DNA from: a virus
Lineage: Duplodnaviria > Heunggongvirae > Uroviricota > Caudoviricetes
Virus record (IMG/VR): IMGVR_UViG_3300043451_000039
Span: 128,001 to 174,396 of that record
Direction: 5' to 3' (one strand)
Length of the DNA: 46,396 bases
The notes under the pieces were generated by a model. That model saw nothing but the letters and a program-made list of their open reading frames with translations, was not told where the DNA came from and searched no databases. The position numbers and the translations under genes are program-made. Shown piece by piece: positions 11,187 to 46,395 of this stretch; within the stretch, counting starts at the first letter, position 1, and each line of letters opens with the position of its first letter.

Positions 11187-11604
11187 TTTCTTTGGCTTTC
11201 TTTTCTAATGGAGGAATGAACCCAGCATCAGTTACCAATTTTCTAGTGATCTTTGGATATTTTTTATGTAGCGTCTGGTCTTTTACAGCAATCAATACTT
11301 CTGCTTCTAGTGGATGAACACCCTCAAGCAAAGAGATAAACAATCCCTCACGCTTTAATGGTGTTAAGTCAGCACGACAGAATACATAGAAACGACGGAT
11401 TTCACCAAACAAGTTTGTTGGTGTCATACCTAGTGGCTCAGCAGCAGGTTTAAATGGAGGCTCACCCTCGGGAAGAATCCATTTCTTTGCGGGATCAAAA
11501 GCATATTCGAAAATACCTTTCAATACTGCGTCACCTTTATATTGCTCAATACATTTTGGATCTGCTTGAATATCGTCAAGCATTTGGGTCAAATATTTTC
11601 TCAT
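11173..11604 (-). CDS. conserved T4-like hypothetical protein next to rnh
   Basis: LPEGEPPFKP, REGLFISLLEGVHP.EA. Confidence 0.8.
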   Translation of the reverse strand: MRKYLTQMLDDIQADPKCIEQYKGDAVLKGIFEYAFDPAKKWILPEGEPPFKPAAEPLGMTPTNLFGEIRRFYVFCRADLTPLKREGLFISLLEGVHPLEAEVLIAVKDQTLHKKYPKITRKLVTDAGFIPPLEKKAKESAPS

Positions 11605-12497
11605 TAAAAATCCTCTAGTTCATCTAACAGTAAACGGCATTTATGTTCAATCAAGTAATTCATGATTGCCATTTTATCACCCTTTGGTTTCTTATTTATG
11701 TATGAATCAATAATCTCTTTAGAGACATCTTCAGGAATAAAGTCAAAGTCAACTAGAGTTGCGTTACGATGCCAGTTACGACGCTCTTCATCATTCTTAC
11801 AAGCAATGAAACCATTATCAAAGAATTCTTGAAGTCGTTTTGCGCTCATAGGTTTCTGGCGCTCACCTTCTATGAACACATTATCTTTACTTAGAATGTT
11901 TGGAACACCATCACCAGAGTCGCCTTTTACGATATGTTCAATTTTATGTTCAATGATTTCCTTCTTGGTTGCAGTGATATACTTCTTCTGCATTGGAGAC
12001 CATTGCTTAACATTCGGATATAGCTGAAGTTGTTTGAAGTCTTTGTCAGAAGAAAGGATAAGAATCTTCTGGGATTCTTCAACCAAACCTTCTCGAACAA
12101 GTTCATTCTCTTGAGCATACTTGGTAAGGACAGCGATAATATCATCTGCTTCAGCACGATCTACGTGCATAACTTTGTATGGAAAATATGTGTCAAGGTC
12201 AGTGCGCATCTCTGAAAGAGTATCAAAGATTAGACCCCAGTCAAGATCGGATTTCTCGCGATTAGATTTACGCATACCCTTATAGAACTCAAAGAATTCT
12301 TTGCGCCAGTATTTGCGACCATCACAACAGATAACTACATCACCAAACTCTTTGCCATATTTTTTCTTATATGACTTAATTGTGGACAATGTTACATGAC
12401 GAATGAGGTTCTTGACCTCGGATTCTGTTCCCTTCAACTCACGCTGAAATGTCAAAATGGCTGCGAGAGCAACCTGAGAATAATCAATTAGAATCAT
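11604..12497 (-). CDS. rnh: T4-type RNase H (5'-3' exonuclease)
   Basis: ILIDYSQ, YWR..YK, EADDII, SSDKDFKQL, GDSGDGVPN. Confidence 0.96.
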   Translation of the reverse strand: MILIDYSQVALAAILTFQRELKGTESEVKNLIRHVTLSTIKSYKKKYGKEFGDVVICCDGRKYWRKEFFEFYKGMRKSNREKSDLDWGLIFDTLSEMRTDLDTYFPYKVMHVDRAEADDIIAVLTKYAQENELVREGLVEESQKILILSSDKDFKQLQLYPNVKQWSPMQKKYITATKKEIIEHKIEHIVKGDSGDGVPNILSKDNVFIEGERQKPMSAKRLQEFFDNGFIACKNDEERRNWHRNATLVDFDFIPEDVSKEIIDSYINKKPKGDKMAIMNYLIEHKCRLLLDELEDF

Positions 12498-26694: not shown

Positions 26695-27363
26695 TTATTG
26701 TTTTGTTAATTCTTTTGCTAGAGGAAATACCTCAGCAATTACCTTTGCACATTCAAGTGCTACTTCTTGGTGTTCCTTTTGTGTTCCATTGCCAGAGCGG
26801 AGTTCAATAAAGTGAATCCAGCTGCGCAATGTACCATTCATGTATAAGCGAGAAACAGTAAGTCCTTCTGGCAGTACTGCTCTTGCTTGCTCTTTAGCAA
26901 TTCCATTTTGGATTGCCCAAGCATACGCTTCCTCAGCTTCTTTGATCACTCGCTTTTGTCTTTCTTCCCACCAAGCAGCCAATGCTAGATTTGTATTCTC
27001 AACACTATTTTGACGATTCTTCGTATCTTGGAGTCGGGCTTCCCTAAGGACGAAAGATAAGTCTTTTGTTGGATCAGCATATCGTTGGCTGAATTCTTGA
27101 AACGAGAAAGAGCGGTGACGCAAAATCTGTCTTGCGATGTCACGAGTAGTTTCAATTTCTAAACACGCACTGACCATTTCTAATGGTGACCAGTGTTGAT
27201 GTTTAATCAAATACTTAATTAACTTCTCTGATGTATCTGTGTTGAACTGATTGCTTGGATTACTAACACGAGCGCAGAACGCAATTAACTCCTGCACATC
27301 CATCAAACCCTCACCATACATTTCGGTAGAGGGTTTGCTATAACTAATTAATTTCACACGCAT
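26695..27363 (-). CDS. thyX: flavin-dependent thymidylate synthase
   Basis: RHRSFSFQEFSQRY. Confidence 0.97.
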   Translation of the reverse strand: MRVKLISYSKPSTEMYGEGLMDVQELIAFCARVSNPSNQFNTDTSEKLIKYLIKHQHWSPLEMVSACLEIETTRDIARQILRHRSFSFQEFSQRYADPTKDLSFVLREARLQDTKNRQNSVENTNLALAAWWEERQKRVIKEAEEAYAWAIQNGIAKEQARAVLPEGLTVSRLYMNGTLRSWIHFIELRSGNGTQKEHQEVALECAKVIAEVFPLAKELTKQ

Positions 27364-32094: not shown

Positions 32095-34437
32095 TTAAGA
32101 TGCAGCTTTTGGCTGACGACGCTTATATGAACCAACGCTTTGACCAATCTTACGACCAGCAGCTTTCTTTTCTGGTTTCTTCATATCGTCTTTAGTTTCA
32201 AAAGCACCTTCTGGATCTTCATAGCTGGCGCCATAAGATTTACCTTGAATCTTGCGTGATGGTAAGTCTGCCATTTTAATCTCATCTAATGATTCAGCTT
32301 CTTCCTTGCGCAACATAGCGAAGTCTTGAGAATCTAACTTATTATTATGATTCTTGTCCAACTTCTTTTGTTTACCAATTAGTTTCTCATCTAGTGATTG
32401 TAAGAATTCTTTATAAGATTTCATAGTTTCCTCTTTTTTAACTTTTGTTTTTTTGATTTCTGGATCGGGTACATGGTACTCATCATCTTCACGTGGGCGA
32501 CGACCGAAACCAGTACGATTGTCTTCATAGCGTTCTTCTACCTTTTCAACTTCCTTTGGTCTATAATACTTCATAAACTTTTCGAAGTCTTTCTTGATAT
32601 GCTCATGGTCATCTTCTTTGCCAGCTAACTTAGCACCAAAGCCAGAATCCAAATAATGTTTAACAGTCTTGTCATCACCATCAGTTAGGTTCTTAACATG
32701 AGCGTGTAGTTCTTCATACTTATCATCAGCAGTAGGGACAGTTCCGTGATAGCCAGCACCTGGGTTACCAGTAGATGCTTCATGAACTTCACCACGAGAA
32801 ATAGCACGACCAATTGCTTTGTTCATTTGCTGTCTATTTTTATGGCCAGTATCAGCTGGAGTCATACCTAAATCTTGATTAACACGTGCACCTTTAGAAG
32901 CAGCCATTAGGTTTTTATAAGTCTTATTGCGACGAGCCTGTTGTGACTTCTCATCAAGGGCTTCTACTTCTTCTTTGCAAGTATTAGTTGGGTGACCATT
33001 AATTGGCTTGCTCTTTTCTTTATGAGCCTTATGTTCTGGTGTACCTTTAATATATTTGCGAGCAATAGTTGGCGCAACTGGAGCCTGTTCTTTAACAGTT
33101 TTCTTTTTAACTGTCTCAAACTTCTCATGATGTGGTTCTTCACCAGCAGCATTTACTTTATCAATGTCAACAGTTTTCTTTTCTTCACGAACTGTATTTG
33201 GTTCATTCTGTCCTTGGAAGAATTTAAACCCTTTGATTTTCTTGCCCATAGTTGTATCCTTTGCAGTTGATGCTGTTGGAGCAGAAGTTTGAGTATCAAT
33301 CTTGTCTGTTCCATTTGGTTGTTCAGTGCCCTCTTTAATACTTGCTTTAGCGGCCATGTAAGCGCCAATAGCCATCTTGCGTCGTTCTGCTTTAGATTTG
33401 TTATTGAAGCGAGGATTAGTTGACTTGATGAAGTCATTAATATAAGCACCTGCGCCCATGTCTGGATGTAAAGTTTCAGTCATATGCTTAATCTTAGCAT
33501 GACGTGGGTGCATAGGTTGATCTGGGTCATGTAGACCACTAGAATTACCACCCAGTAATGCAGCAACTTGATCTTTGAAACGCTTTAATTGTTTTGTTCT
33601 ATCGTCTTGTTGATCAACAGTTTCTTCCTTAACTGGTTTCTTCTCAGCTTCTTTACGCTCACGCTCAAGACGTTCTTGTTTAGCCATCTTTGACATTCTC
33701 TTGTTGAATGATGGTTTCTTCCAGTATGGAGTTGTTTCTTCTTTAATATTCATACCTTTACGCACATCGTGATACATTGCGTCCTTATGTTCTGGTTTCA
33801 TTTTAGATGGAGCACCAGCATGGAATGCTTCTTTATTACCAGAAGCAGCATGCTCACGCATTTTGCTAGCAGAGATACCAGTAGTACCTTCTGAATCTGG
33901 ATCACGTTCACCAGAAGAATGAACAGTAATCTTCTTAAAGTTATAGTGACCATGAGCAGAATCTTTACCATTATACTTATGAAGTAAATTATGCATCTCT
34001 TCATGGCGGTCAGAACCAGCAACTACGTGTAAGTGAGTAGCGCCAGCCTTGTGTGCTGCTGCGGCATGGTGGAGGATTGTTGGAGCCTCTTTGCTAGCTG
34101 AACTAACATTAGTTTCAGGGAATGCGTTCTTAGCATGTTTAACTTTTTGATCACCACTTAATGGGTTTTTCTTAGCGTCTTGGCTATGAGAAACAACAAC
34201 ATTGTGTGAGGCGCCATGTTCTTTAGCAACTGAATGAACTTTATTAACAACAGCCTCATGACCAGAAGTAATCGGATTCATACGACCAAACGCTAATACA
34301 TGATGTTTGTCAGCGCCAATTGGTTTTGTTGCTTCTTCTTTCACACAGCTCCCGTCAGCGCATGGTTTGGTTCCAGGTTTACGCTTGTAACCTTTCCAAC
34401 AATCGCATTTTTCTTTTAGTTCTTTATATGTTAACAT
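32095..34437 (-). CDS. HxGH nucleotidyltransferase (cytidyltransferase-like) domain plus long modular tail; likely internal head protein
   Basis: FGRMNPITSGH, VAGSDR, ISASKMR; many (L/I/V)xE sites. Confidence 0.8.
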   Translation of the reverse strand: MLTYKELKEKCDCWKGYKRKPGTKPCADGSCVKEEATKPIGADKHHVLAFGRMNPITSGHEAVVNKVHSVAKEHGASHNVVVSHSQDAKKNPLSGDQKVKHAKNAFPETNVSSASKEAPTILHHAAAAHKAGATHLHVVAGSDRHEEMHNLLHKYNGKDSAHGHYNFKKITVHSSGERDPDSEGTTGISASKMREHAASGNKEAFHAGAPSKMKPEHKDAMYHDVRKGMNIKEETTPYWKKPSFNKRMSKMAKQERLERERKEAEKKPVKEETVDQQDDRTKQLKRFKDQVAALLGGNSSGLHDPDQPMHPRHAKIKHMTETLHPDMGAGAYINDFIKSTNPRFNNKSKAERRKMAIGAYMAAKASIKEGTEQPNGTDKIDTQTSAPTASTAKDTTMGKKIKGFKFFQGQNEPNTVREEKKTVDIDKVNAAGEEPHHEKFETVKKKTVKEQAPVAPTIARKYIKGTPEHKAHKEKSKPINGHPTNTCKEEVEALDEKSQQARRNKTYKNLMAASKGARVNQDLGMTPADTGHKNRQQMNKAIGRAISRGEVHEASTGNPGAGYHGTVPTADDKYEELHAHVKNLTDGDDKTVKHYLDSGFGAKLAGKEDDHEHIKKDFEKFMKYYRPKEVEKVEERYEDNRTGFGRRPREDDEYHVPDPEIKKTKVKKEETMKSYKEFLQSLDEKLIGKQKKLDKNHNNKLDSQDFAMLRKEEAESLDEIKMADLPSRKIQGKSYGASYEDPEGAFETKDDMKKPEKKAAGRKIGQSVGSYKRRQPKAAS

Positions 34438-34438
34438 A

Positions 34439-34726
34439 TTAGCAATTCCATTTTCTTAATGCTAATGCTTTACGAGTTGGTTCACCATTAGGTTTCTTCA
34501 TTGGACCTTCAACACCAGACATTCTAGCGCAGAATGATTTTCTACGATTGGCAGCTTTGCTACCCTTCTTTAACTTAGATGGTGGTGTAGTGACTGCCAT
34601 TTTTAAATGACCACCAGTCTTACGATTGTAAGCGTCAACACCTTTCTGTGTTAAACCACCCTCAGAACTTTTATATCCTTTGGCATCGATAGCACGCTCA
34701 GTAATGTATTCTTTGAAAGATAGCAT
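34439..34726 (-). CDS. small basic conserved phage protein (DUF6321-like)
   Basis: GGLT.KG, RRKSFCARM, ALRKW.C. Confidence 0.75.
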   Translation of the reverse strand: MLSFKEYITERAIDAKGYKSSEGGLTQKGVDAYNRKTGGHLKMAVTTPPSKLKKGSKAANRRKSFCARMSGVEGPMKKPNGEPTRKALALRKWNC

Positions 34727-35907
34727 TATTTTCTTACCTTTAATAAGTTGGCTTTGGCGAACTCAGCACGATTTACTAATTTAGTTGGCTCATTCTTATG
34801 TTGAACAACGAAACCTTCTGGCTTCGATTTCTGTCCTTCGATATGATGCTCAAGACCACCTTCGTGTGTTTCTAAATGTTTTACTAATGTATTCTTTGCT
34901 TGATGCAACTCATTGTGCATATTCAACAGATTACCGTAGTGTTCTTTATTCTTTTCTACATGCTCAACATGGCTGGCACCTTCAGCCTTCTTCTTGGCTT
35001 GACCTGCTTCTGACTTTAATTTACCAGCTGCTTTATCAAAGTGTCCTTGAACATGTTTCTGGAAACCTTCAGCAGATGGCTTATCGCCAGTACGAACAGT
35101 TGAGTTAATATAAGTTGCTAGATGACCACCTTCGCCAGAATGGCTTGGGTGAACAGCTGAATACATTTTGCTACCATGAGTATCATGGATTTTCTTAGCA
35201 GCATCCATATGGCTCTGGAATTTCTTTTGAGCATCAGCAGGATAACTAATCTTGCTTGTGTCATGAGAAGCAGACTTTTGATACACGTCTGGATGTTGTT
35301 TGAAACCTTTGTCGCTTTCTAAAGGTTTAGCGTGCATAGAACCTAAGTCCTTGCCGTGATATTGAGTATGTGTAACAACACCAACATGTGAATCTTTTAC
35401 TTTCTTGGCTTCATCACCATGAGCAGTATAGGTAATAGTGTTTGGTGTGAAAGAAGCAGTACCTTTCTTTTCATCATGATGCACGTCAGTCTTAGAGTGC
35501 ATCAAGTCACCTTGGTAAACGCCAGTCTTTGGAGCAACCTTTGGTAAATGAGTAAGGGCAGCTTTTAGTTTATCAGCAAGACCTGGAGCATGACCATGGT
35601 GCTTGTCAATATCTTCATGAGAGTAATTAATCTTTGGGTTTTTATTGAACGCTGATTTAGAAGCAACGAAAAACTTTTTAGTTTCTGGATGGTGCCCGTA
35701 AACAACAGCAGGTGAACCATCATACTTCATAGAAAGACTACTATCAGATTTACCAGCCTTCATATGCTCGTGGGCTTGAGTAAGTGCACCATGAGCATGT
35801 TCGAAACCAGCTGAGCCATGCATCAATGGACGATCTTCAGCATGATGAATGTGCTTTAATTTAGCACCTTCGTCTTCTTCTCTTAAGTATGTTGCGAAAC
35901 TCTTCAT
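34726..35907 (-). CDS. RNA-ligase-like covalent nucleotidyltransferase (DUF6267-like)
   Basis: KYDG (motif I), YQGDL (III), PEGFV (IV), TKLV (V). Confidence 0.75.
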   Translation of the reverse strand: MKSFATYLREEDEGAKLKHIHHAEDRPLMHGSAGFEHAHGALTQAHEHMKAGKSDSSLSMKYDGSPAVVYGHHPETKKFFVASKSAFNKNPKINYSHEDIDKHHGHAPGLADKLKAALTHLPKVAPKTGVYQGDLMHSKTDVHHDEKKGTASFTPNTITYTAHGDEAKKVKDSHVGVVTHTQYHGKDLGSMHAKPLESDKGFKQHPDVYQKSASHDTSKISYPADAQKKFQSHMDAAKKIHDTHGSKMYSAVHPSHSGEGGHLATYINSTVRTGDKPSAEGFQKHVQGHFDKAAGKLKSEAGQAKKKAEGASHVEHVEKNKEHYGNLLNMHNELHQAKNTLVKHLETHEGGLEHHIEGQKSKPEGFVVQHKNEPTKLVNRAEFAKANLLKVRK

Positions 35908-35910
35908 TGT

Positions 35911-36357
35911 TTATCCAATGTTCTTTGCTGATGAACGTAACCACCAGCCATGCTTTTCGTGGGTATCAATTCTATCAGCGATAAAATTAGCAATACCTTG
36001 TTTATTATTTTTAGTAGCAATAGCGAATACTTTATTTAGGCTGTTGATCACTTCTTCGTTTGCAGAAAGAAGGCTACCTAGAATGTCTTTCAAAAGGATA
36101 ACTCTAGTTGTTTCTTCATCAAGTGTTTTATATTTAAACAATTGATCTAAACTCACTGGAGGGTAGTCACCAAGTTTACGAATGTTTTCCGCAATTGGAT
36201 CAATAGAATTATAAACATCTTCGTAAAGGTCACCAAAGAAATCATGGTACTGAGTAAACTCAACACCTTCGATATTCCAATGGAACTGATGTGCTTTATA
36301 ATACATTACTGTTGCATTTGCTTGGAGCACTTTTAGTGCCACTACTAATTCATCCAT
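35911..36357 (-). CDS. dps: Dps family mini-ferritin
   Basis: HWNI.G..F...H..F..LY......D..AE, HEK..W. Confidence 0.93.
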   Translation of the reverse strand: MDELVVALKVLQANATVMYYKAHQFHWNIEGVEFTQYHDFFGDLYEDVYNSIDPIAENIRKLGDYPPVSLDQLFKYKTLDEETTRVILLKDILGSLLSANEEVINSLNKVFAIATKNNKQGIANFIADRIDTHEKHGWWLRSSAKNIG

Positions 36358-36359
36358 GA

Positions 36360-37355
36360 TTACCCTTTAAATAGTGGATCGTATGGTTGCTGAAAATCAA
36401 TCACTGGTTGTGGCTGCTCAGCGTTTTTACCACCTGTTTTAAGTTTACTTTTAAAAGATTTTAACTTTTTCTTTTCTTCTTTAACTTCTTGCTTCTTTGG
36501 TTCTTCTTTTTTACCAGCAATTAGTTCAAGTTCTTTACGCATACGATCTCGGCTTGCATCACTTTTAGCACGCTCACGATCCCATGCACGCTGTAACTTA
36601 ACAGCAGCACTCATGCGTTTAGTTTCGTCAAGGTAGTTAACATTGTGAATCCACTTTGTTACTAACTTGTCTTCTTCATTTCTTAGTAATAGATGATTGG
36701 ATCCACGCTTCACAATTTCGTATACTTGTTCTTCTGACTCAACTATATCACCAACATTAAAGATCTCACCACGGAAATACTGTTCACGGAGTTCGTCTTT
36801 AACTAATTTAATTTCTTCTTTGATTGGCTCTAAGTTGAAGCCAAGTCTAACATCGTTCATCAATCTACGAGAATCAATCTCACGAACTGATGATGGTAAA
36901 TTCTTTTTAAACTCTTCGTATAAACCCTTAACAGCAAACTTACAGATACTGTCGTCGCTATCTGGATCAATATCACCAGCGGATACAACTGTGGCTTCCT
37001 TAAGACTTTTCTTCATGGAAGCCACTTTATCTGCGCTGACAACTACGATAACATTGCGATAGGTTTCTTTTAATTTAGATACCATCTCATTAATGTTATC
37101 CGAGTAACCAACAAAATTGGTGTTCGGAAATATCAGGTTCAGATACTGAAGTTTCTTTTCTACTACAAGAGGATTCTTTTTGGCGTCGCTTAGATCGGAC
37201 GCATAGATTACGTGGCTTGCATTCTTTTGCTCAGCCAGTTTTTTGACAGCCTTAATTTGAAGTTCGTGTCCGATAGTCGGAGGGTTAAACTTACCACAGG
37301 CTAGAACTACCGTTTTGCTCGGTAACTCTCTTATTAATTGTCTATAATCTTTCAT
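36360..37355 (-). CDS. second, degenerate HxGH nucleotidyltransferase-like protein
   Basis: GKFNPPTIGH, KKNPL; GSDR replaced by SADK; LRE.Y..G.IF.VGD domain. Confidence 0.75.
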   Translation of the reverse strand: MKDYRQLIRELPSKTVVLACGKFNPPTIGHELQIKAVKKLAEQKNASHVIYASDLSDAKKNPLVVEKKLQYLNLIFPNTNFVGYSDNINEMVSKLKETYRNVIVVVSADKVASMKKSLKEATVVSAGDIDPDSDDSICKFAVKGLYEEFKKNLPSSVREIDSRRLMNDVRLGFNLEPIKEEIKLVKDELREQYFRGEIFNVGDIVESEEQVYEIVKRGSNHLLLRNEEDKLVTKWIHNVNYLDETKRMSAAVKLQRAWDRERAKSDASRDRMRKELELIAGKKEEPKKQEVKEEKKKLKSFKSKLKTGGKNAEQPQPVIDFQQPYDPLFKG

Positions 37356-37389
37356 TTTAATCCATCAATTAAGTAGTGTTATATCTTAT

Positions 37390-38799
37390 TTAGTAAACTT
37401 TGTAGTGCACAGAGGAAAAAGCATTCATCTTCTTAGCAGCTAGATACATCTTCTTATAGATGTCTCCAGGGTTTTTGGCAGTCTCTAAAGCGTAAATATA
37501 GTATAACAGAACGACTGCTCTTCGAACTTCATAGTCGCTCATCTTATCATTAATCCCAGACACATTAACAAACTTAAACTTGTTGGCTTCTACGTATTTG
37601 GTGAATCCTTCGTATATCTTAATGTTAGACATAGATTTAATTTGCGCTCCAGCTGAAGCAGCTACTTTCTGAGCCTTCTTCATATCCGAAATAACATTCA
37701 ACATCCCAGGGAATTCCTCATTGAGCATATCTCTAGAGATGGCACCATCCCAAACTTTAGCAGTTTCTGGTTGCCCCTCACCATAGGTATTAAGTTCTCC
37801 AGAAGCACCACGTGGACGGAAACGGAAACGATATGTGATGGTTTCCTTAAATACCTTCATGCTCAATAGAAAGTCAAAGTAAGAATTGCTTACTTTGTAT
37901 TCAAACTTCTTTGCTGGTTTTTGGAACTCAATGCTCTTGATATACTTGGCATCAACTTCAATCTTTGAAATAGTAGCCTTTGGTCCAGCAACTTTCTTAA
38001 GAGAGATACCGATAATATCCTTAGAATCAAACTTCTCTTCAACGAACTTGTTTAAGTCTTCGATACCAGCTTTCTTTGCCAGCAGTTTCTTATGAAGTGC
38101 ATCAACAGCGAGACCAAGTTTTGCAGCATTTGTTTTTTTAACTGCCCAAATATCTGATGGGTTCCAGTTATCTTTGCTATCTGGAAGAACTTTGGCATCA
38201 GTGATTTGATTTAGAAACTCTGGCTTCTTTGGATTGCTATCACGGTAGAAGTCATACTGACCAATGGTGCTCTTTGGCATTACAGTCAGAACAGCATTAA
38301 CAGTTTTCTCGAATGAGTCATGCCAGTCTTTACCAAACTCAAATTTAACTGCTTTGTTGATTAGATCTTTTGCTGGGAATTTCTTATTAGTTGCGTAGTA
38401 TTCTAAACAGAACCTAGTTCCATCTTCTTGCTGAGCAGTTGAAGGTGTCTTAGCAGTGGTAGCATTACCTTCTTCATCGATAACATTCTGAAGGCGACCA
38501 CCTGATTTATAGAGGAAGAACTTATCTGCCCCAACCTCAACCAAATACTTCTTACCTTTTTGATCAGTCACCTTGGCAGTCTTAACTGTCTGAGCAGCAG
38601 CAACAACTACATCAAACGATTTCTCATCAGGCGCTGTTACTTTAATTAAGGCAGTGCCAGCTGGCATCTTTCCATCATCCGTTTCCAGATACATCATGCT
38701 ACTGTATGGAGTAAATTTGGAGATGACAGTCTTCAATGCTGGTTTCTTTTGAACCAACATATCAAATCCTGCTTTACCTTGGAAATATTGTTTTGCCAT
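37390..38799 (-). CDS. PD-(D/E)xK-like nuclease-fold protein
   Basis: TAQQE, WNPSDIW, IGISLKK. Confidence 0.6.
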   Translation of the reverse strand: MAKQYFQGKAGFDMLVQKKPALKTVISKFTPYSSMMYLETDDGKMPAGTALIKVTAPDEKSFDVVVAAAQTVKTAKVTDQKGKKYLVEVGADKFFLYKSGGRLQNVIDEEGNATTAKTPSTAQQEDGTRFCLEYYATNKKFPAKDLINKAVKFEFGKDWHDSFEKTVNAVLTVMPKSTIGQYDFYRDSNPKKPEFLNQITDAKVLPDSKDNWNPSDIWAVKKTNAAKLGLAVDALHKKLLAKKAGIEDLNKFVEEKFDSKDIIGISLKKVAGPKATISKIEVDAKYIKSIEFQKPAKKFEYKVSNSYFDFLLSMKVFKETITYRFRFRPRGASGELNTYGEGQPETAKVWDGAISRDMLNEEFPGMLNVISDMKKAQKVAASAGAQIKSMSNIKIYEGFTKYVEANKFKFVNVSGINDKMSDYEVRRAVVLLYYIYALETAKNPGDIYKKMYLAAKKMNAFSSVHYKVY

Positions 38800-38832: not shown

Positions 38833-39528
38833 TTACGTAAGCCTATTGTATTTACGTTCCCATTTAACAATTTGCTGCATAAGTTTTGGGATAGCAGCAT
38901 TGTTCTTAAAGTCATAGTCAAATGTTCTCAAGAAATAGTGAAGGGTTCTTGAATCTCTATGGCTTTTACAGCGATTCAGAAGAGTCTCAACATCCATGTT
39001 CGGACGTCTAGATTTAAAATCCATTAATACGCAGTGAGCGTATGCTTGAATCTCATCGAACTCAGAGAGGTATTTTCTCTCGTCATTCTTTCTTTTGCTG
39101 TGGGCTTTTTTATATGGAACTACATAGTGGCTCCATTGATCATCACGTCTATCATATTGCATGTAGTGGATGATCTCATGCTGAAGGCAGGTGATTAGTC
39201 TGAACTTGAAATTGTTCCAACTGTTATCAGAGAATGGAAACTTATCGAAGTAGTCAGTGAATATTATAAGACAGCATTGACGCTTCTCAATATCATATTC
39301 ACCTGCGATACTGACACCTCGTTTATATTTCTGAGCCTTAGAAGGTTCTTTGCGCCACTCAATCTTAGTGCGCCACTTCTTAACATAATTACCTAGTCCG
39401 ACAGAATCGTTTCGGTAATTATCTAAGTCTTTCCATATCTTTGCAGGGATGAACTTTGCTCGGAAAGGTACTGAATAAAAATTCAGTAATTCCATCCAGT
39501 CATAATTTGCGTTTTCTAGGTAATACAT
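38833..39528 (-). CDS. HExxH zincin-like metalloprotease
   Basis: QHEIIHYMQ, then Y...DEIQAYA. Confidence 0.7.
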   Translation of the reverse strand: MYYLENANYDWMELLNFYSVPFRAKFIPAKIWKDLDNYRNDSVGLGNYVKKWRTKIEWRKEPSKAQKYKRGVSIAGEYDIEKRQCCLIIFTDYFDKFPFSDNSWNNFKFRLITCLQHEIIHYMQYDRRDDQWSHYVVPYKKAHSKRKNDERKYLSEFDEIQAYAHCVLMDFKSRRPNMDVETLLNRCKSHRDSRTLHYFLRTFDYDFKNNAAIPKLMQQIVKWERKYNRLT

Positions 39529-39548: not shown

Positions 39549-40157
39549 TTAACTAAACTGCTTCTCCAAAAATGCAAGAACCTTCCCCTGCTCCTCTAAG
39601 TTAGTGTTTACAAACTCAGTAATATATGGCATAAGTTCAAAATTCGACATCAAGTTACTATATTTAGTTTCTCGCCCACGTAGGAATTGCTCCGACTGGT
39701 CTGATCCACGATCTTTATAGCGTTGTTCTAGGATATCTTTTGGAGCCTTTAGGAATACCACTACCAACTCGGTATTCTCTAGACCCATACAGAACTCTAG
39801 GAAAGATTGGTTGAAGACTCGGTCGCCTTCGAAAAGGATATTACAGTTATGAGTCTTAATCCATTCCTGTAGGTTTGGTTGGACTGCCATAGAAAGACGA
39901 TCCGTACCAGCAAAGGTTTCACCCTCTTCATATTTACCAAGGATGTATAGATCTCGCTCAGGATTATAGCTGGCTGAGACTAACTTGGCTGGCTCGGTTG
40001 AGATGAATGGTTTGTCTTCCATAAACTTACGGAACAAAGTAGTCTTACCAGTTCCAGGAGAACCACCAACTGCTACAATCTTTCTTGTCTTCATAGGGTT
40101 TGTTACCTTCTCTACTTTAATAGTGTCTTGTGCACCGACTCGCTCAACGAACGCCAT
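39549..40157 (-). CDS. P-loop nucleotide/DNA-base kinase
   Basis: GGSPGTGKT, GTDRLS, FEGDR; start trimmed to MAFVER. Confidence 0.8.
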   Translation of the reverse strand: MAFVERVGAQDTIKVEKVTNPMKTRKIVAVGGSPGTGKTTLFRKFMEDKPFISTEPAKLVSASYNPERDLYILGKYEEGETFAGTDRLSMAVQPNLQEWIKTHNCNILFEGDRVFNQSFLEFCMGLENTELVVVFLKAPKDILEQRYKDRGSDQSEQFLRGRETKYSNLMSNFELMPYITEFVNTNLEEQGKVLAFLEKQFS

Positions 40158-40542
40158 TCTTAATATCCTCAATAAGATTAATCAATTCTTCTTTAGTGAA
40201 TACCCAAGCACGACCACGGAAAGAGTGAGTGAATGTATCTTGCTCAAATTTCTTAGTGTAAGAGATTTTCTTAGTTACATCACGTGCTAGGTTCTTAGCC
40301 ATGTTTTCTTTAATGGCATCAGCGTAATCCACGTTCTGCTCTTTCAATTTAATAAGTTCTTGCTCTTGAACACGATGCTCAACAACAAACTCATTCAAAG
40401 CAAACTGATCAAGAATATCTTGAGTCTTTACTTTTTGTGCTTGACTAATACCAGCAGTATTAGAAGCAGTAGATACCGTGATGGTGCTATTGCTACCATC
40501 AAAACTTAAATTTCCTACTGGGGCTTGTGTAGCGACAGACAT
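40144..40542 (-). CDS. hypothetical protein
   Basis: Operonic ORF. Confidence 0.7.
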   Translation of the reverse strand: MSVATQAPVGNLSFDGSNSTITVSTASNTAGISQAQKVKTQDILDQFALNEFVVEHRVQEQELIKLKEQNVDYADAIKENMAKNLARDVTKKISYTKKFEQDTFTHSFRGRAWVFTKEELINLIEDIKNGVR

Positions 40543-41558
40543 TAAAAATTCTCCAATCCAATTAAAACAGGTTCTTCATCATCAAACATCCATTCAAGGT
40601 TTTCAAGTTTACCAGTATTAACAAAACTTGAAAACCTTTCTTTATCAATACCACGCTTATGGTCTAATCTTAAATCAATCGTTTCATTTCGAGCATCCCA
40701 AAGAACATCCCAATCAATACCATACCATCCATCATTCTCTGCTTTAATAATTTCTTCTGCCTGACGATCAAGGTAGTATCCAAGATAACGACCATGATGT
40801 TCACGAAAGATTTTCTTGAAAGAACATAGGCAGGTTTCCATAGTGAAGTAGTCAATTTGATTTGCTAGTTCTGGAAACCTTTCTCTCATTTCAATGATAA
40901 TCCCCCAGCTAACATTCTCAAGGTATGCATATTCCACTCGATTAAGTTTTCGATCATAATCGTCATCCTTGCCAATGGCCAAAAGTAATCCATTACGATG
41001 AGAACGGGAACCATCATAATCATCAAGCATGAGAGAACTAGGCTCAATCCTAATCCCAGCAGTGTGACGAAGATGCTGCATATAGAACCAAGTAGAATAC
41101 CTACCAAACTTGTGAAGGTTTCCTTTGAGTACGCTCCACAGAGCATCAAAGTTTTGTTTCTCATTGTCTCCGTAGTACGATTCGAGTGTTTCACGCTGAG
41201 TCCTGTTTCCAATAAATTTCTGATACGATTCAAACATTGTAGGTAAATGTCCTTTGTTCCACTTTGTATCAGTTTGATATCTCAATCTCTTATAGTTCGT
41301 AGCATTCCATTGAGTCATTCGATCAACAGTCGCCAATTCATAATCAGGAAACTCATTCATCAATACCCAAGCAGTAGGCAATTGATATGTGTTACCATAC
41401 AACCAACAAAGCCAAAGACGCTGTTCGTCATTATGCTCATATCGTTTGTTCAGATAGTTTGTAGCCCATACAGCTGGGTCACAATCATCATATTTTAACG
41501 ACCAAGCATACCATCGGATAAATGCCTCTCGTCGGTTTTGTTCTAATCTGTAATCCAT
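40542..41558 (-). CDS. alpha-glutamyl/putrescinyl thymine pyrophosphorylase (amino acid:DNA transferase), clade 2-like
   Basis: D.DP, FGRYS.W.Y, ETCLCSFKK, Y.GYY.DR; next to the P-loop kinase. Confidence 0.8.
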   Translation of the reverse strand: MDYRLEQNRREAFIRWYAWSLKYDDCDPAVWATNYLNKRYEHNDEQRLWLCWLYGNTYQLPTAWVLMNEFPDYELATVDRMTQWNATNYKRLRYQTDTKWNKGHLPTMFESYQKFIGNRTQRETLESYYGDNEKQNFDALWSVLKGNLHKFGRYSTWFYMQHLRHTAGIRIEPSSLMLDDYDGSRSHRNGLLLAIGKDDDYDRKLNRVEYAYLENVSWGIIIEMRERFPELANQIDYFTMETCLCSFKKIFREHHGRYLGYYLDRQAEEIIKAENDGWYGIDWDVLWDARNETIDLRLDHKRGIDKERFSSFVNTGKLENLEWMFDDEEPVLIGLENF

Positions 41559-41563
41559 ACTTT

Positions 41564-41592
41564 ATTATACTATAAATCGGAATGAAAGTAAA
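41564..41592 (-). promoter_or_regulatory. early-type promoter
   Basis: TTTACT-N17-TATAAT, 5 nt before the ATG. Confidence 0.75.
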
Positions 41593-41604
41593 GCGATTTT
41601 TGAC

Positions 41605-42156
41605 TCAAAAACCCTCTAAATTGACCCCTATTTGGCTGTTTGCAAGGTCGTAGAGGGTCGTACAGCCCCCCTTACCCTTTCGGTTGACCGCTTTGTTGAT
41701 AGTCGTGTCGGAGTAGTCGTAGTCGCCCTCTAAGAAGGTATCTCCCCCTATACGGAAGATAGATAGCTGGCAACCACTCTTTTGAGCACCCCAGAAGCGG
41801 AATCCTAGACGCTCGTAGAAGCCCACGGCAGACTTCTCAGAGGATACCCTGAAGTAAGTTGCCCCATTGGCTCTCGCTCGTTTTAGCGAGTCCTCGCAGA
41901 GTAATCGAGCCGAACCTTTACCCCTATGTTTTGCAAAGGTATGTAGCAACTGTAGATTGGCTACATGTGGTTTAGTCTTCGAGATTGTAGTAATGATTGC
42001 AGCAGTTAATTCGTTACCATCGAATGCGCCAATACAAGAATCCCATTGCTCTTGCATGTCTGCTTTAGCGACGAACGTCTTTGCGAAGTTATCTTCCTTG
42101 GCTTCAGATATTGCGGCAATGAATTCAGTTCGTGTACAGTTACGCAACTTCAACAT
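41605..42156 (-). CDS. GNAT acetyltransferase
   Basis: HRGKGSAR acetyl-CoA motif, AVGFYERLGF. Confidence 0.9.
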   Translation of the reverse strand: MLKLRNCTRTEFIAAISEAKEDNFAKTFVAKADMQEQWDSCIGAFDGNELTAAIITTISKTKPHVANLQLLHTFAKHRGKGSARLLCEDSLKRARANGATYFRVSSEKSAVGFYERLGFRFWGAQKSGCQLSIFRIGGDTFLEGDYDYSDTTINKAVNRKGKGGCTTLYDLANSQIGVNLEGF

Positions 42157-43015
42157 AGGTTCTTACTTTTTCGCCACGATCTTCTGGATGTTTAGTTTTC
42201 TCCCAACCAATAAACTGAGCCAAGTCCCACTGCATTGGAGGAAATTTATAGTTGTTTGTTGATATAAGTTCAACTACACTTGGTCCATCATTTAATGCTG
42301 CGTCAAGAAAGTCTTGAACAAAACGGAAACATGATTCGAGTTCAGTTCGATCTAATGTTCCACGGAACAGTCTAAACTCTACAGTATCAATATGCTTTAA
42401 AGCATACATGTTAATAGCGAAACGGAATGGGCGACCCATTGATACGCCATCTTTACCAGCAGCATGCATCTTGATGAATGAATCAAAGTCTGTTGCTAGG
42501 TTGATGATGTTATCTGACATGTAGTCAGGCATTGGGCGACCACCATCAAACTTCAAATACATCTTTGCGCCTTTGGCACCTTTCATTTGATTGTGCTCAA
42601 AGAAACCATAAACATGCTCAATAGCAGCAGCTTGATTCTCTTTGATGTATTTTGTTAGACGCTTGAGCGCATCAATATCATTACGTAGATTAGGGACACG
42701 ACAATGTATATGAGTGTGAGCAGTAACGCCAACAGTAGGTGGAGTTCCGTTATCTGAAAAGATTTTCTCAAGTTCAAAATATCTATCAACTTGTTCTTGC
42801 CATGTTCTAGTCGGTTTAGTGTTAATCTCCCCACCGACTGGAGGAGTTTCACCAAGTGGGTCAGCGCAGACATATTTGTAAGGGTCTCTTAGGTTAATAA
42901 TATCTCGTTCTGAATACTCCCAAGAACCGAGTTCTTCTGGAATTAAAAAAGGGCGAGGCACATCACCCCACTCTATTTCCATACCGTATGTAAATTTATC
43001 AGCTGGATAATTCAT
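42140..43015 (-). CDS. amidoligase (COOH-NH2 ligase, glutamine synthetase/GCS fold)
   Basis: TYGMEIE, GGEINT, HTHIH, AIN, TVEFR. Confidence 0.85.
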   Translation of the reverse strand: MNYPADKFTYGMEIEWGDVPRPFLIPEELGSWEYSERDIINLRDPYKYVCADPLGETPPVGGEINTKPTRTWQEQVDRYFELEKIFSDNGTPPTVGVTAHTHIHCRVPNLRNDIDALKRLTKYIKENQAAAIEHVYGFFEHNQMKGAKGAKMYLKFDGGRPMPDYMSDNIINLATDFDSFIKMHAAGKDGVSMGRPFRFAINMYALKHIDTVEFRLFRGTLDRTELESCFRFVQDFLDAALNDGPSVVELISTNNYKFPPMQWDLAQFIGWEKTKHPEDRGEKVRTYVEVA

Positions 43016-43697
43016 AATCTACTTTCTGTAAATCAGGTTTCTTTGTTTTGACAAGGTCAACATTCATTGTCATATTTGAATCGAATGTCAAGTAAGTGTT
43101 CATTGGAACTTCAACAGCTGGCATCTTAATACCTGCTCGTCTAGGAATATCCGCAGTAGAAGTAATTATAACTCCATTCACCAAAGAAGTCAAATATAAT
43201 GGACGCTTACCATTTCTGAAAACAAGAAGGTGTTTATCTTTAAGGGATAACTCACAAACTGCCATAGATGCGTCTGGGTACTCACCAAGAGCATTCGCAG
43301 AATGTAAAACTAATTCAGAATCATTCTTTGTTTCACAAGGATAATTAAATATCTTACCCCAGTTCTCTGGAAGTTCTTGAGTGATAACTCCATTGTGAAC
43401 AATAGAATGTGTTGCGCTTGTCAACGGCTGGTTATACAGTAGATCGCTAGTGCTATATCTACAATGACCAATGAGATAAAGAATGCCGTCATCGTTTACC
43501 ATCTCCTCTAAATTATCTAAATGAACAAATCTATCCGCAGGGACTGCTTCTTTAAATGTAACAATTGTATTACCTTTAATATAAGATAACCCAGTTGCGT
43601 GCATGCCTCGAATCTTTGATTGAAGGAACACATTACGGATGTTTTCAAAATCTTTGGAAGTTGGATTTTGAATCAACGCACCTATAACAGAACACAT
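42999..43697 (-). CDS. class II (Ntn) glutamine amidotransferase
   Basis: N-terminal Cys, RG..ATG, GHCRYST, NQP, HNG, DSE, RPL. Confidence 0.9.
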   Translation of the reverse strand: MCSVIGALIQNPTSKDFENIRNVFLQSKIRGMHATGLSYIKGNTIVTFKEAVPADRFVHLDNLEEMVNDDGILYLIGHCRYSTSDLLYNQPLTSATHSIVHNGVITQELPENWGKIFNYPCETKNDSELVLHSANALGEYPDASMAVCELSLKDKHLLVFRNGKRPLYLTSLVNGVIITSTADIPRRAGIKMPAVEVPMNTYLTFDSNMTMNVDLVKTKKPDLQKVDYELSS

Positions 43698-44293
43698 TAT
43701 TGTAACTCCAATTTAGTCAAACCATTTTCATCACCAATAATCCCAGTAAAGAATGTATTAAATGCTAACGAAATTCTTTCTTCTACTCCAGAATTAATAT
43801 CTACAGAATGTTCAAGTTGTGATGGGAACAACACAAGCATACCCTTTCTAATATTAACCTTATACTCTTTAGAGTTGAACGGATTGTGCGAACCAATTTC
43901 AAAAGAAATGTCACTATCTTTTTTTCTATAAAATTTTATGCTTGGTGGGATTTCTGGGCAGATATAATATACGCCACTAACAATGCTGTTATCGTGACTA
44001 TGTTTATGATGTGCTTGATTAGTAGCATTCCTATTTACCCACGATTGAGTGAACCTTAACCCCACTTTAGTTGACGGACATAAAATGTTATCAATATAAT
44101 TTTGTAGATGTGGTTTGATTCGTTCAGATAAATCTGGCAAAGAGTCAAGAACTTTGGTATCAAGACTATAAGAATTCCCAGAAACATTCATTGATGTTTC
44201 AAGAGAGTTTATAATTTGATATTCCTCTTGGCTCAAATTCCCAACCTCAGCAACATAGACTGGGGTTGGGAATAATGGCAGAATCTGAAACAT
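43697..44293 (-). CDS. 2OG-Fe(II) oxygenase (TIGR02466-like)
   Basis: LFPTP, SWVN, H.H, SGVYY, FPS.L.H.V, RISLAFN. Confidence 0.88.
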   Translation of the reverse strand: MFQILPLFPTPVYVAEVGNLSQEEYQIINSLETSMNVSGNSYSLDTKVLDSLPDLSERIKPHLQNYIDNILCPSTKVGLRFTQSWVNRNATNQAHHKHSHDNSIVSGVYYICPEIPPSIKFYRKKDSDISFEIGSHNPFNSKEYKVNIRKGMLVLFPSQLEHSVDINSGVEERISLAFNTFFTGIIGDENGLTKLELQ

Positions 44294-45657
44294 CAGAAGA
44301 AACCTTCTAGTGATGAAGCATTGGCTTCTGGGTGATACTTATGAAGTTCATCCTTACCAAGTTTCTCTTCACAATAGTCATACCATTCTTTGCTAGTCCA
44401 CATAGATTCAGAAACACCATTCCATAAAGGTTTCCATAGAGGATGTTCTTTGTTTAGTCTACGAGATTCAACAAAGTTGAAACGGCAATCTTCATATTCA
44501 AATGAACCCAACTCAAGCATCTTCTCACGGAAATAACATACCAATGAAACACGCTCGGCTTCTTCATCAAGAAGTTTAATCTCAGTATTGCCGTGCATAA
44601 CCTCGTGGTTATTAATTAAGAGCAAGTCACCTGGACGCACATTAACAGCAACACGATATTCTGGAGCAATCAAGTAACCACCAGAGTAGTTACCATTGTT
44701 AGACAACACCAACAAGTTAGACAAGCCAGAATCTAAATCACCAGCATCAAAGTGTGCGGCAGTGCGGAATGTTTTGTTGACAGTGATAGTTGTGAACGGA
44801 GTTCCAGGAACCAAGAAACGTGGATCTAGTTTCTCTGCTGCTTTCATTTGATTAGCATAACGCCATGGCAATAGATCCTTGAAACCTTTGGCAAGAGTTT
44901 GAAGGAATGGGAATGCCATTTGGAACTTCTCAAAGTTGTCACGTGTATAAGAAGTAGCACGACCATATGGAATACGTGGGTAACGATCGAACCAGCCAGC
45001 GATACCAGAGTTAACAGCAGTGCCGTAAGTAGTGGTACTGATCATCTTCATAACTTCTTCAGTAGCCTTTGCTCGTTCTTCACGGCTCATAGGTTTAATT
45101 GAATCAACCCATGCTTCAAAGTCAAACTTACCACGGAAACGAGAGATAACCCATACATTGTTCTTACCACCGCCACCTGCCATCTTCTTGTCAGTTTCGG
45201 TAGGATACTTATTGCGAACTGTATCAATAACATCTTCTTCAATCAAAGCAGAGTTACGATTCTTGATCAAGGCAGTGATCATCTCATCTTGATAGTTGGT
45301 AACCCACTCACGACCATCAGAGGTAGCAATGATACCATCTTTAATACCAGAAGCAAGTCCACGATTCTCTGTTCGAATCGCTGCTTCACGCAGACCAGCA
45401 TATGCTGCGTCTTGTTGTTCTTTGCTGAAGTAGTTCTTGCGGAACTTGAAAACAATTCTACGCTCATCAGAACCTGTGGCGCAATTTGCGCAATCTTTTG
45501 GAACATCACAATCAGCTTGGGTTGCTAGGTCGCAGTTCGGTGGTGCGTAAACATCACAATCTTCTTCCACAAGAATATCATAATGAGATTCATCAACAAA
45601 TTTGCCCAACAAATGTGAACAATCAATTTTCTTTTCGGCTACAATTACCTTTACCAT
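44293..45657 (-). CDS. TET/JBP-family 5-methylpyrimidine dioxygenase
   Basis: FTTITVN..FRTAAHFDAGD, GDLL, HGNT, RVSLVCYFRE. Confidence 0.85.
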   Translation of the reverse strand: MVKVIVAEKKIDCSHLLGKFVDESHYDILVEEDCDVYAPPNCDLATQADCDVPKDCANCATGSDERRIVFKFRKNYFSKEQQDAAYAGLREAAIRTENRGLASGIKDGIIATSDGREWVTNYQDEMITALIKNRNSALIEEDVIDTVRNKYPTETDKKMAGGGGKNNVWVISRFRGKFDFEAWVDSIKPMSREERAKATEEVMKMISTTTYGTAVNSGIAGWFDRYPRIPYGRATSYTRDNFEKFQMAFPFLQTLAKGFKDLLPWRYANQMKAAEKLDPRFLVPGTPFTTITVNKTFRTAAHFDAGDLDSGLSNLLVLSNNGNYSGGYLIAPEYRVAVNVRPGDLLLINNHEVMHGNTEIKLLDEEAERVSLVCYFREKMLELGSFEYEDCRFNFVESRRLNKEHPLWKPLWNGVSESMWTSKEWYDYCEEKLGKDELHKYHPEANASSLEGFF

Positions 45658-45666
45658 TTCTCTCTC

Positions 45667-46395
45667 CTAAAACTTAAACCCACTGAAACCTTCTGCTCTT
45701 TGTCGCTTGCCAAATTCACTCTTGTCAAACATAGGCACATCGTCTTTATCTTGACCAGAGTCAGACAAACCTACCTGAGCGGATGCTTCAACATCATATA
45801 ACTTCATCTTGGCTCTATCGATACCAACAACGAAACGCTTATAGAATCCTGGATCATTGTAACGATTCTTTAATTGTTTAACAATGATTTGATTCAATTG
45901 CTCAAGTTCTTCATTTGAAACTAACGCAAACATAAAGTCAGCAGTGGCTGGTAATCCAAACGATTCAGAAGTATCTTCCAAACCTGGATCGCTATTAGTG
46001 TATCCACTTCGAGTTGTTTGTGTGGCTGAAACAATTGGAACATTATATTCAACAGCCAAACCTCTTAACTCTTCAGCGATACTCTTAATATATGTATAAG
46101 AGTTAATACTTCCACCTTGCTTCATACGCTGACTTGAACAAATGTTTAGATAATCAATGAAGATAATATCAGGAATAAACTCACGCTTCAACTTCAACTC
46201 TTCAAGCAATGCTCTGAAGTGACCAGCATGTGCGCCAGCAGTTGGATATTCTTTGACGATTAGTTTGCCCTGAGTTTTCTTAGAAATCTTTTCAATACGA
46301 TTGTCGAAGATATCTTTGTCGATAACCTTCAACTCATCCATGGTCAAGTTCAATAGGTTCGCATCGATACGCTCAGCGATACGCTCTTCAGCCAT
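45667..46395 (-). CDS. replicative helicase (T4 gp41), C-terminal part; 5' end outside the window
   Basis: KEYPT, IDYLNIC, AEELRGLA, SATQ, SESFG, KNRY. Confidence 0.97.
   Translation of the reverse strand: MAEERIAERIDANLLNLTMDELKVIDKDIFDNRIEKISKKTQGKLIVKEYPTAGAHAGHFRALLEELKLKREFIPDIIFIDYLNICSSQRMKQGGSINSYTYIKSIAEELRGLAVEYNVPIVSATQTTRSGYTNSDPGLEDTSESFGLPATADFMFALVSNEELEQLNQIIVKQLKNRYNDPGFYKRFVVGIDRAKMKLYDVEASAQVGLSDSGQDKDDVPMFDKSEFGKRQRAEGFSGFKF

Follow-up and report, generated by a model that had tools for sequence, protein, structure and literature searches.

A compact gene cassette in a T4-like phage genome very probably encodes a pathway that hypermodifies thymidine in DNA after replication. 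The cassette occupies positions 39,549 to 45,657 of the window, by which we mean the whole 46.4-kb stretch that was analyzed; this is the final part of the 174,396-bp virus record IMGVR_UViG_3300043451_000039, which has direct terminal repeats and is rated complete. The host genome of the cassette is that of a complete T4-like phage. Hypermodified thymines protect phage DNA against restriction and other nucleases, and the enzymes that make them are wanted as site-directed DNA labelling tools.

In the proposed pathway, a TET/JBP-type dioxygenase would hydroxylate thymine (T) in finished DNA to 5-hydroxymethyluracil (5hmU), and a P-loop kinase would phosphorylate the hydroxymethyl group. Cys245 of an amino acid:DNA transferase (AADT, formerly aGPT-Pplase2) would then attack C6, the phosphate would leave, and a nucleophile would add to the exocyclic methylene. 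That nucleophile would be ammonia, freed from glutamine by an N-terminal nucleophile (Ntn) glutamine amidotransferase (GATase), yielding 5-aminomethyl-deoxyuridine (5-aminomethyl-dU). An ATP-dependent amidoligase would condense this amine with a carboxylic acid that is probably an amino acid. A GNAT N-acetyltransferase would then acetylate the amine that is left, so that the final thymine would be bulky and neutral and bear an amide. Steps one to three were drawn by homology to characterized enzymes, and steps four to six from comparative genomics only. Taken as a whole, this scheme is our best explanation of the cassette, and we lean modestly toward it; the ammonia-first order of its steps, suggested by gene distributions, is an even call. 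If the scheme is true, the product of the ATP-dependent amidoligase would be a base not yet described.

Organization of the cassette

Almost all genes in the window lie on the minus strand, including every gene of the cassette, which is found directly downstream of a DnaB/gp41-like helicase gene (45667-46395; Pfam DnaB_C). The open reading frames (ORFs) of the cassette abut or overlap by 1–29 nt. Their sole intergenic gap, 46 nt between the GNAT and AADT genes, contains a sigma-70-like promoter match on the same strand (TTTACT-17-TATAAT; 41564..41592), which is a match to the consensus only. A sequence-only reading of the window had listed eight ORFs in this block; all are present, its coordinates and minus-strand assignments are correct, and the catalytic motifs of the cassette enzymes are intact. 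When the profile searches it had proposed were run, Tet_JBP, AADT, and P-loop kinase matches were above cut-off, but the Amidoligase_2 match was below it (discussed below).

Dioxygenases and the source of the hydroxymethyl group

The first gene encodes a 454-aa TET/JBP-type 5-methylpyrimidine dioxygenase (TET; 44293..45657; Pfam Tet_JBP 7.8e-26, 90.7 bits versus a cut-off of 34.9), a predicted thymine dioxygenase. Its H302, D304, H355, and R369, which form the HxD...H iron ligands and the Arg that binds 2-oxoglutarate (2OG), are invariant in 14 homologs. Approximately 200 aa precede the Pfam domain, and approximately 80 residues extend past the conserved VCYFRE strand. The top Foldseek matches of an AF2 model (pLDDT 68.5) are CcTet, NgTET1, TET2, and CMD1, with E-values of 2e-8 to 3e-4.

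The complete genome contains one TET gene and one AADT (PF18724) gene. Profile searches of all 174 kb found no C5-methyltransferase (PF00145) and no ThyA-type hydroxymethylase (PF00303); the genome also yielded no dCMP hydroxymethylase homolog, no HMUDK_hel, and no TAGT glycosyltransferase. Because the C5-methyltransferase and the ThyA-type enzyme are both missing, the phage itself apparently makes neither 5-methylcytosine (5mC) nor pre-replicative 5hmU or 5-hydroxymethylcytosine, and a ThyX (26695..27363; Pfam Thy1 4.2e-46) would provide an ordinary supply of dTMP. The earlier observation of ThyX without a hydroxymethylase or C5-methyltransferase therefore holds for the entire genome, beyond the window to which it had been limited. 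Searching the remainder of the genome for a C5-methyltransferase or dUMP hydroxymethylase, as had been proposed, returned nothing that would prompt a shift of substrate to 5mC, and the suggestion that TET acting on T stands in for a dUMP hydroxymethylase in supplying 5hmU is supported.

Related loci point to the same substrate. Full-length orthologs of the GATase, AADT, GNAT, and amidoligase (37–43% identity) are present in three phage contigs, L090, L091, and L100, in which no TET is found and a ThyA-like gene and NT5C adjoin the module, accompanied by dUTPase_2 in two of the three. Since the orthologous module adjoins ThyA-like genes in these contigs, it likely acts on a 5hmU-derived base, and as the phage described here has no hydroxymethylase to make one, TET would have to supply it from thymine. 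These comparisons support thymine as the TET substrate in this phage. The argument that TET_JBP replaces a dUMP hydroxymethylase was made earlier by Lee et al. (PMC8989533), and thymine-oxidizing activity was verified experimentally for related enzymes by O'Toole et al. (PMC13229309); phage TET/JBP enzymes linked to a GATase, a kinase, and an AADT are proven or predicted T-dioxygenases (PMC13229309).

A second 2OG-Fe(II) oxygenase (PF13759/TIGR02466; 198 aa; 43697..44293; Pfam 2OG-FeII_Oxy_5 1.9e-20; phrog_81) is encoded between TET and the GATase. The gene had been counted as part of the modification block and is indeed there, but its membership of the core does not hold: only 4 of approximately 40 related loci have such an oxygenase in this place, and its identity is 36–54% where the neighboring proteins share 80–90%. 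Because few relatives have it and it diverges far more than its neighbors, we treat it as an accessory insertion.

Two minor observations concern this enzyme class. Residues ~42–62 of TET form a variable Cys-rich insert, with four to five Cys, that is present only in some relatives, and its presence or absence is unlinked to that of a ParB-like ORF. Outside the window, a 160-aa ORF (G000:C1:97867-98016, minus strand) matches the Tet_JBP profile weakly (E=0.004) and is probably another small 2OG oxygenase.

Transferase and kinase

The AADT (338 aa; 40542..41558) matches the ADDT family PF18724 at 2.2e-19 (70.5 bits versus a cut-off of 26.2) and phrog_3271 at 2.4e-54. The same PHROG holds gp247 of Salmonella phage ViI, a serine:DNA transferase; the two proteins keep the same Glu/Cys pair but are only 27% identical. 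E241 and C245 align with the Glu and Cys of both M6 gp51 and ViI gp247, a pair shown to be essential by Lee et al. (PMC8989533).

The P-loop kinase (207 aa; 39549..40172), the predicted 5hmU DNA kinase, matches Ploopntkinase3 (PF18751; 5.7e-08, 32.9 bits). Its Walker A motif, GSPGTGKT, begins at residue 37, and an ATG 15 nt inside the ORF is the likelier start. It belongs to phrog_800 (1.2e-15), into which M6 gp54 also falls (2e-39).

Amidotransferase, amidoligase, and acetyltransferase

The stand-alone class-II (Ntn) GATase (232 aa; 42999..43697), the predicted ammonia donor, matches GATase_6 at 9.6e-09 (35.8 bits versus a cut-off of 27), while its matches to purF and asnB are weak. Cys2, directly after the initial Met, together with R80, N102-G103, and D126, is invariant across eight diverse homologs; we take these to be the Cys, Arg, Asn-Gly, and Asp of the PurF-type glutaminases. 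The GATase gene overlaps that of the amidoligase by 17 nt.

The Amidoligase_2-type (glutamine-synthetase-like) carboxylate-amine ligase (291 aa; 42140..43015) is identified through its family, as its own match to PF12224 (E=0.014, 15.7 bits) is below the 22-bit cut-off. An exhaustive phmmer search collected 300 representatives; among 20 diverse members of the family, 13 match PF12224 (best 7.7e-10). The homolog P0160, which the window protein finds at 1.4e-39, scores 42.6 bits for PF12224, and a second homolog, P0215, is likewise above the cut-off. Invariant family residues are G11, E13, and E15 (a G-x-E-x-E strand), E63, N65, H104, R198, E213, and R215, and the ESM Atlas feature score to Amidoligase clusters is 0.98; the family profile had no meaningful match among PDB sequences. 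The call of an amidoligase made from the window alone is thus confirmed indirectly, by family members and the ESM Atlas, and appears sound, though Pfam does not call the window protein directly. Homologs occur fused to GNAT and HMUDK, to GNAT and HMUD2, to HMUD2 alone, to a GATase, or to a TET-associated glycosyltransferase, and these fusions tie the family firmly to DNA base modification.

The GNAT (183 aa; 41605..42156) matches Acetyltransf_10 (6.6e-12; 46 bits versus 23.6) and Acetyltransf_1 (35.4 bits versus 20.7).

A distant amidoligase homolog is found in Vibrio phage 2.275.O (L093, MG592671 332034-333146), within a 7-deazaguanine cluster that includes QueF, QueC, and GTP cyclohydrolase I, and it adjoins an Ntn "nucleophile aminohydrolase". 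A pair of amidoligase and Ntn proteins may therefore serve purine modification too. Vibrio phage 2.275.O and phage Simon, cultured phages with amidoligase homologs, were considered as carriers of the cassette, which is not present in them.

Gene partnerships across related loci

Which partner the GATase serves bears on the order of steps. A GATase-seeded IMG/VR scan identified 74 loci with both GATase and AADT, of which 33 carry the full set with amidoligase and GNAT and 31 lack the amidoligase. Because 31 of 74 have no amidoligase, the GATase appears to pair with the AADT and not with the amidoligase. The gene order in these 31 loci is TET-GATase-X-AADT-kinase, with X standing for a GNAT-like protein of 220 aa that ends in PSLEEFL; examples of this minimal cassette include L118, L176, L181, and approximately 30 other IMG/VR loci. 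The minimal cassette is predicted to make 5-acetylaminomethyl-dU by a route other than that of Pseudomonas phage PaMx11, in which glycine transfer and cleavage dependent on flavin adenine dinucleotide (FAD) give 5-aminomethyl-dU, which is then acetylated (PMC8989533).

We also compared the contexts of eleven diverse amidoligase homologs. Contigs whose AADT is of the same long type as that of the window also have a GATase, in many cases directly abutting the AADT (L090, L091, L097, and L100). Amidoligase loci with a PaMx11-type glycine AADT (L089 and L099) instead contain a DAO/FAD enzyme and no GATase, and L096, which has an M6-type AADT, contains pyridoxal phosphate (PLP) and radical SAM genes and no GATase within its short contig. 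The pairing of GATase with AADT, and its replacement by the FAD enzyme in PaMx11-type loci, favor ammonia as the AADT nucleophile. Beside the PaMx11 route to the same amine, the simplest reading is that the GATase and the long-type AADT would reach 5-aminomethyl-dU directly.

The sequence-only reading had proposed that the amidotransferase, amidoligase, and GNAT form a trio that builds or decorates the amine. The trio does occur with TET and AADT in other genomes, as that idea requires, but it does not behave as a single unit, as the GATase goes with the AADT while the distribution suggests that amidoligase and GNAT are an optional add-on. This division refines the proposed order of steps in a way that can be tested.

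Polymerase-like tails and the sliding clamp

Three cassette enzymes end in short hydrophobic-acidic tails that resemble that of the phage's own family-B DNA polymerase: polB ends in SSLEDFFG, TET in SSLEGFF, the AADT in IGLENF, and the GNAT in VNLEGF. Polymerase-like tails occur in 6 of the 232 genes of the genome, where 0.35 are expected and the maximum in 2000 shuffles was 3. The tails are conserved in relatives, that of the GNAT in close ones. In the broader set of loci, 52 of 77 TET and 51 of 71 AADT proteins carry the tail, against a background of 13 of 498, but no GATase (of 79), amidoligase (of 41), or kinase (of 50) does.

The genome encodes a homolog of the gp45 clamp (L087:1162-1818; E=6e-25 to 1czd). 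A predicted complex of the trimer of this homolog with TET residues 395–454 scored 0.61 versus 0.18 for the best of three controls, values that indicate likeness and not binding, because the RB69 clamp-peptide complex (1b8h) has been solved and the prediction may reflect that structure. Among solved complexes, 51 of 78 reach the mark used for such scores, as do 2 of 108 mismatched pairs. At least 94% of the contacts are common to the runs, and the pLDDT of the partner is at least 48. The predicted contacts join TET residues 446–454 to a clamp pocket formed by residues ~32–39, 101–107, and 193–212, which is the site that binds the RB69 polymerase peptide.

The tails thus resemble the PIP-like tail by which T4/RB69 gp43 binds gp45 (PDB 1b8h), being near-identical to the phage's polymerase tail and predicted to occupy the same pocket, but here the carriers are DNA base-modifying enzymes and not replication proteins. 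We found no description of clamp tails on DNA-modification enzymes in the literature searched. TET, the AADT, and the GNAT are probably brought to new DNA by their tails, which would dock on gp45. Should the tails indeed serve in docking, they would account for how post-replicative enzymes locate fresh DNA and how T-dioxygenases function without a ParB partner (see below). A further, tentative proposal, which we regard as doubtful in its full form, is that in T4-like phages gp45 replaces a ParB clamp and couples hypermodification to the replication fork, and that AADTs of this clade aminate DNA at the expense of glutamine, making 5-aminomethyl-dU directly, on which the amidoligase forms a peptide-like bond.

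Two other proteins have comparable ends. A T4 RNase H homolog (11604-12497, minus strand) ends in LDELEDF, of the polymerase tail type; the clamp-binding motif of T4 RNase H itself is N-terminal (PMC3012046), and a C-terminal placement is the FEN-1 arrangement. Outside the window, a 322-aa structural-looking protein (G000:C1:46751-47719, minus strand) ends in PLEFFLG, by chance or as a further clamp client.

Conservation of the cassette and its variable slot

An amidoligase-seeded IMG/VR scan returned 79 loci (56–94% identity), in which the order helicase-TET-GATase-amidoligase-GNAT-(variable slot)-AADT-(p132)-kinase is kept. The GATase and amidoligase genes are adjacent, with the 17-nt overlap, in all close relatives. 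The 132-aa protein p132 (40144..40542) is fast-evolving and has no Pfam, PHROG, or NCBIfam match; it is found in 23 related loci (37–81% identity) and is missing from more distant cassettes. Cassettes of this type abound among environmental T4-like phages, with more than 70 loci from a single IMG/VR scan. In some close relatives (L017:12009-13505 and L021), a 498-aa B12-binding radical SAM enzyme is inserted between the AADT and p132, which suggests a further tailoring step, possibly methylation.

A megablast search of the cassette against GenBank phages gave no match; the phage itself is uncultured, and it has no close relative in culture. Only for TET are there protein relatives, at 41–46% identity, in Stenotrophomonas phage DLP6, Caulobacter phage Cr30, and phage C48C1, each without the GATase/amidoligase/GNAT part. 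Cr30 (L002, KF301602 50383-69681) is a cultured T4-like phage whose TET is 44% identical. Within 9 kb of its TET gene are a dATP/dGTP diphosphohydrolase-like gene, an AADT (PF18724, 179 bits), and a weak TAGT-like glycosyltransferase, as well as an inositol-1-phosphate synthase and a phrog_800 kinase. Cr30 is thus a tractable relative with another decoration branch.

The slot between GNAT and AADT is empty in the window. In many relatives it holds a very fast-evolving protein of 410–490 aa (e.g., L014:11480-12796, L026:11470-12825, and L072:11474-12796), and a profile built from these proteins aligns with the N-terminal, ParB-type domain of Noc (E=0.0013) and includes a DGNHR motif, reminiscent of the ParB activators of O'Toole et al. 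(PMC13229309). The same proteins have an N-terminal GIY-YIG homing-endonuclease domain (phrog_314, 1.2e-10), and in other relatives HNH/EndoVII endonucleases occupy the slot. Based on the GIY-YIG domain, the fast evolution, and the replacement by HNH/EndoVII enzymes, we read the slot as a landing site for homing endonucleases. The ParB-like ORFs may instead be activators of the dioxygenase, a reading that we did not adopt given their GIY-YIG domain and their alternation with HNH endonucleases.

The whole genome has no match to ParB_N (PF02195) and none to the profile of the relatives' ParB-like proteins. A ParB hidden in the N terminus of TET was considered and not adopted, as the N-terminal 230 aa have no Pfam match and the complete model has alignments to TET folds alone. 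The adjacent 231-aa protein p231 was also suspected of being a hidden ParB, but by alignment it is an HExxH protein.

Alternative readings of the pathway

Several points weigh against the proposed scheme. The loci sampled for context are few and were collected by way of the amidoligase or the GATase, and many of the contigs are short. The TET model is of medium confidence only, and clade C1 enzymes without ParB were inactive in E. coli (O'Toole et al., PMC13229309), while the genome here is ParB-less. The predicted 5hmU DNA kinase shares phrog_800 with M6 gp54 but falls outside both Pfam families of the characterized 5hmU DNA kinases: M6 gp54 matches PF18748 and ViI gp243 matches PF18747, while the window kinase matches PF18751 and has no match (E<0.01) to PF18748 HMUDK_HMUD1 or PF18747 HMUD2. 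Its pairwise similarity to M6 gp54 and ViI gp243 is limited to the P-loop region. Finally, AADTs are so far known to take only amino acids or putrescine (PMC8989533), not ammonia, and the existence of P0215 as a GATase-amidoligase fusion, together with the 17-nt overlap here, fits delivery of ammonia to the amidoligase.

The last two points are also the basis of an alternative order of steps, in which the AADT would add a free amino acid, as in ViI and M6, the GATase and amidoligase, working together as a single glutamine-dependent amidotransferase, would convert its carboxylate to a carboxamide, and the GNAT would acetylate the amine, yielding, for example, an N-acetyl-serinamide or glycinamide adduct. 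The fusion of an N-terminal GATase to an amidoligase in P0215 is the usual layout of class-II amidotransferases, the adjacency and overlap of the two genes extend to all close relatives, the AADT falls into phrog_3271 along with ViI gp247, a serine transferase, and all characterized AADTs use amino acids or putrescine. However, this order leaves unexplained the 31 of 74 loci in which the GATase must serve a partner other than an amidoligase, and in L090, L091, L097, and L100 the GATase abuts the AADT. Moreover, the amidoligase loci without a GATase have chemistry that removes the carboxylate, in the form of a PaMx11-type FAD lyase or an M6-type PLP decarboxylase, and the P0215 fusion may be a simple loss of a stop codon, because the genes already overlapped in that lineage. 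We consider the amino-acid-first order unlikely.

Two further alternatives concern the dioxygenase. It could be inactive or need a missing ParB-like activator, on which related clade C1 enzymes depend, leaving the pathway silent or dependent on a host factor: the complete genome has neither ParB_N nor a homolog of the relatives' GIY-YIG/ParB-like slot proteins, and O'Toole et al. found ParB-dependent enzymes alone to be little active and ParB-less C1 members inactive in E. coli (PMC13229309). Yet none of the eight ORFs is disrupted and their catalytic residues are invariant, the ParB-less layout recurs in L006, L017, L055, and L060, the ParB-like proteins of relatives resemble mobile elements (GIY-YIG, alternating with HNH) and not activators, and the clamp tail would be an alternative means of holding the enzyme on DNA; this alternative is quite improbable. 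It is also conceivable that 5mC is what TET oxidizes and that cytosine is the base decorated, as happens in the phage 5mC-dioxygenase systems described by Burke et al. 2021. The TET/JBP family acts on 5mC or T, characterized phage T-dioxygenases oxidize 5mC too, in vitro, and the closest solved folds are those of 5mC enzymes. This reading is nonetheless very hard to sustain, as the complete genome has no C5-methyltransferase and no dCMP hydroxymethylase homolog, the AADT and its kinase are known on 5hmU only, and elsewhere the orthologous module pairs with ThyA-like genes, plus dUTPase_2 in two of three loci.

Comparison with published systems

Cassettes of this kind have already been published by Lee et al. 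2021 (PMC8989533) and O'Toole et al. 2026 (PMC13229309), so that the pathway idea read from the window alone was already in print. Lee et al. (NAR 2021/22, PMC8989533, Fig. 2 sequences 22–25) reported metavirome contigs with TET_JBP, 5-HMUDK, and aGPT-Pplase2 together with an amidoligase and a glutamine amidotransferase. These contigs have the same enzyme families as the window, with TET_JBP in place of a dUMP hydroxymethylase, no nearby source of 5mC, and a kinase followed by an AADT. The amidoligase and amidotransferase are mentioned there as co-associated, and neither they nor a GNAT are given a role in this context (PMC8989533). In contrast, the gene distribution described here suggests that the GATase serves the AADT and that amidoligase and GNAT are an add-on, and the cassette is placed in a complete T4-like genome.

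The clade C1 thymine dioxygenases of O'Toole et al. (5mYOX; PNAS 2026, PMC13229309) share with the window protein a C-terminal extension past the core, GATase, kinase, AADT, and GNAT neighbors, and the lack of an adjoining C5-methyltransferase. They differ in having a ParB activator gene, which is found in neither the cassette nor the genome here, and the TET described here is longer (454 aa), with a C-terminal extension that ends in a gp43-like clamp-binding tail. The departures from published cassettes are the lack of ParB, the complete T4-like genome, the accessory second oxygenase, and the clamp tails.

PaMx11 (gp46 AADT, gp47 FAD lyase, gp48 acetyltransferase, and gp49 kinase, which together give 5-acetylaminomethyl-dU) likewise combines a kinase, an AADT, and an acetyltransferase on 5hmU DNA, and the 5-aminomethyl-dU proposed here is the PaMx11 intermediate. 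In PaMx11, however, a dUMP hydroxymethylase provides the 5hmU, and glycine transfer followed by FAD-dependent cleavage yields the amine, while the window has no FAD enzyme, a GATase instead, an AADT of another clade, and an added amidoligase. The PaMx11-like contig L089 contains an amidoligase-GNAT pair 46–50% identical to that of the window. ViI (gp243/gp67 kinases) differs in its use of a PLP decarboxylase and of a kinase of the HMUD2 type (PF18747), and TET, GATase, amidoligase, and GNAT are all missing from it.

Neighboring genes

Adjacent to the kinase gene is that of p231 (231 aa; 38833..39528, minus strand), a possible zincin that is probably not part of the core. By alignment, its HExxH motif is invariant, along with a downstream Glu/His. 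A confident AF2 model (pLDDT 83) gave only weak Foldseek matches (ArdC, SPRTN, and selecase; E 0.2–0.7), the ESM Atlas placed it among unnamed viral clusters, and it was not seen in distant cassettes. Speculatively, p231 might be a protease of the zincin type whose task is to remove stalled covalent AADT-DNA adducts; alternatively, it might have an anti-restriction role.

Farther downstream (32095-38799, minus strand) are genes for p469, two cytidylyltransferase-like proteins (331 and 780 aa), a ferritin, and a DUF6267 protein, for which we found no link to the cassette. The 469-aa p469 matches only PHROGs of unknown function (phrog_1462) and has no clear relation to the slot proteins; like p231, it is a lineage-specific neighbor.

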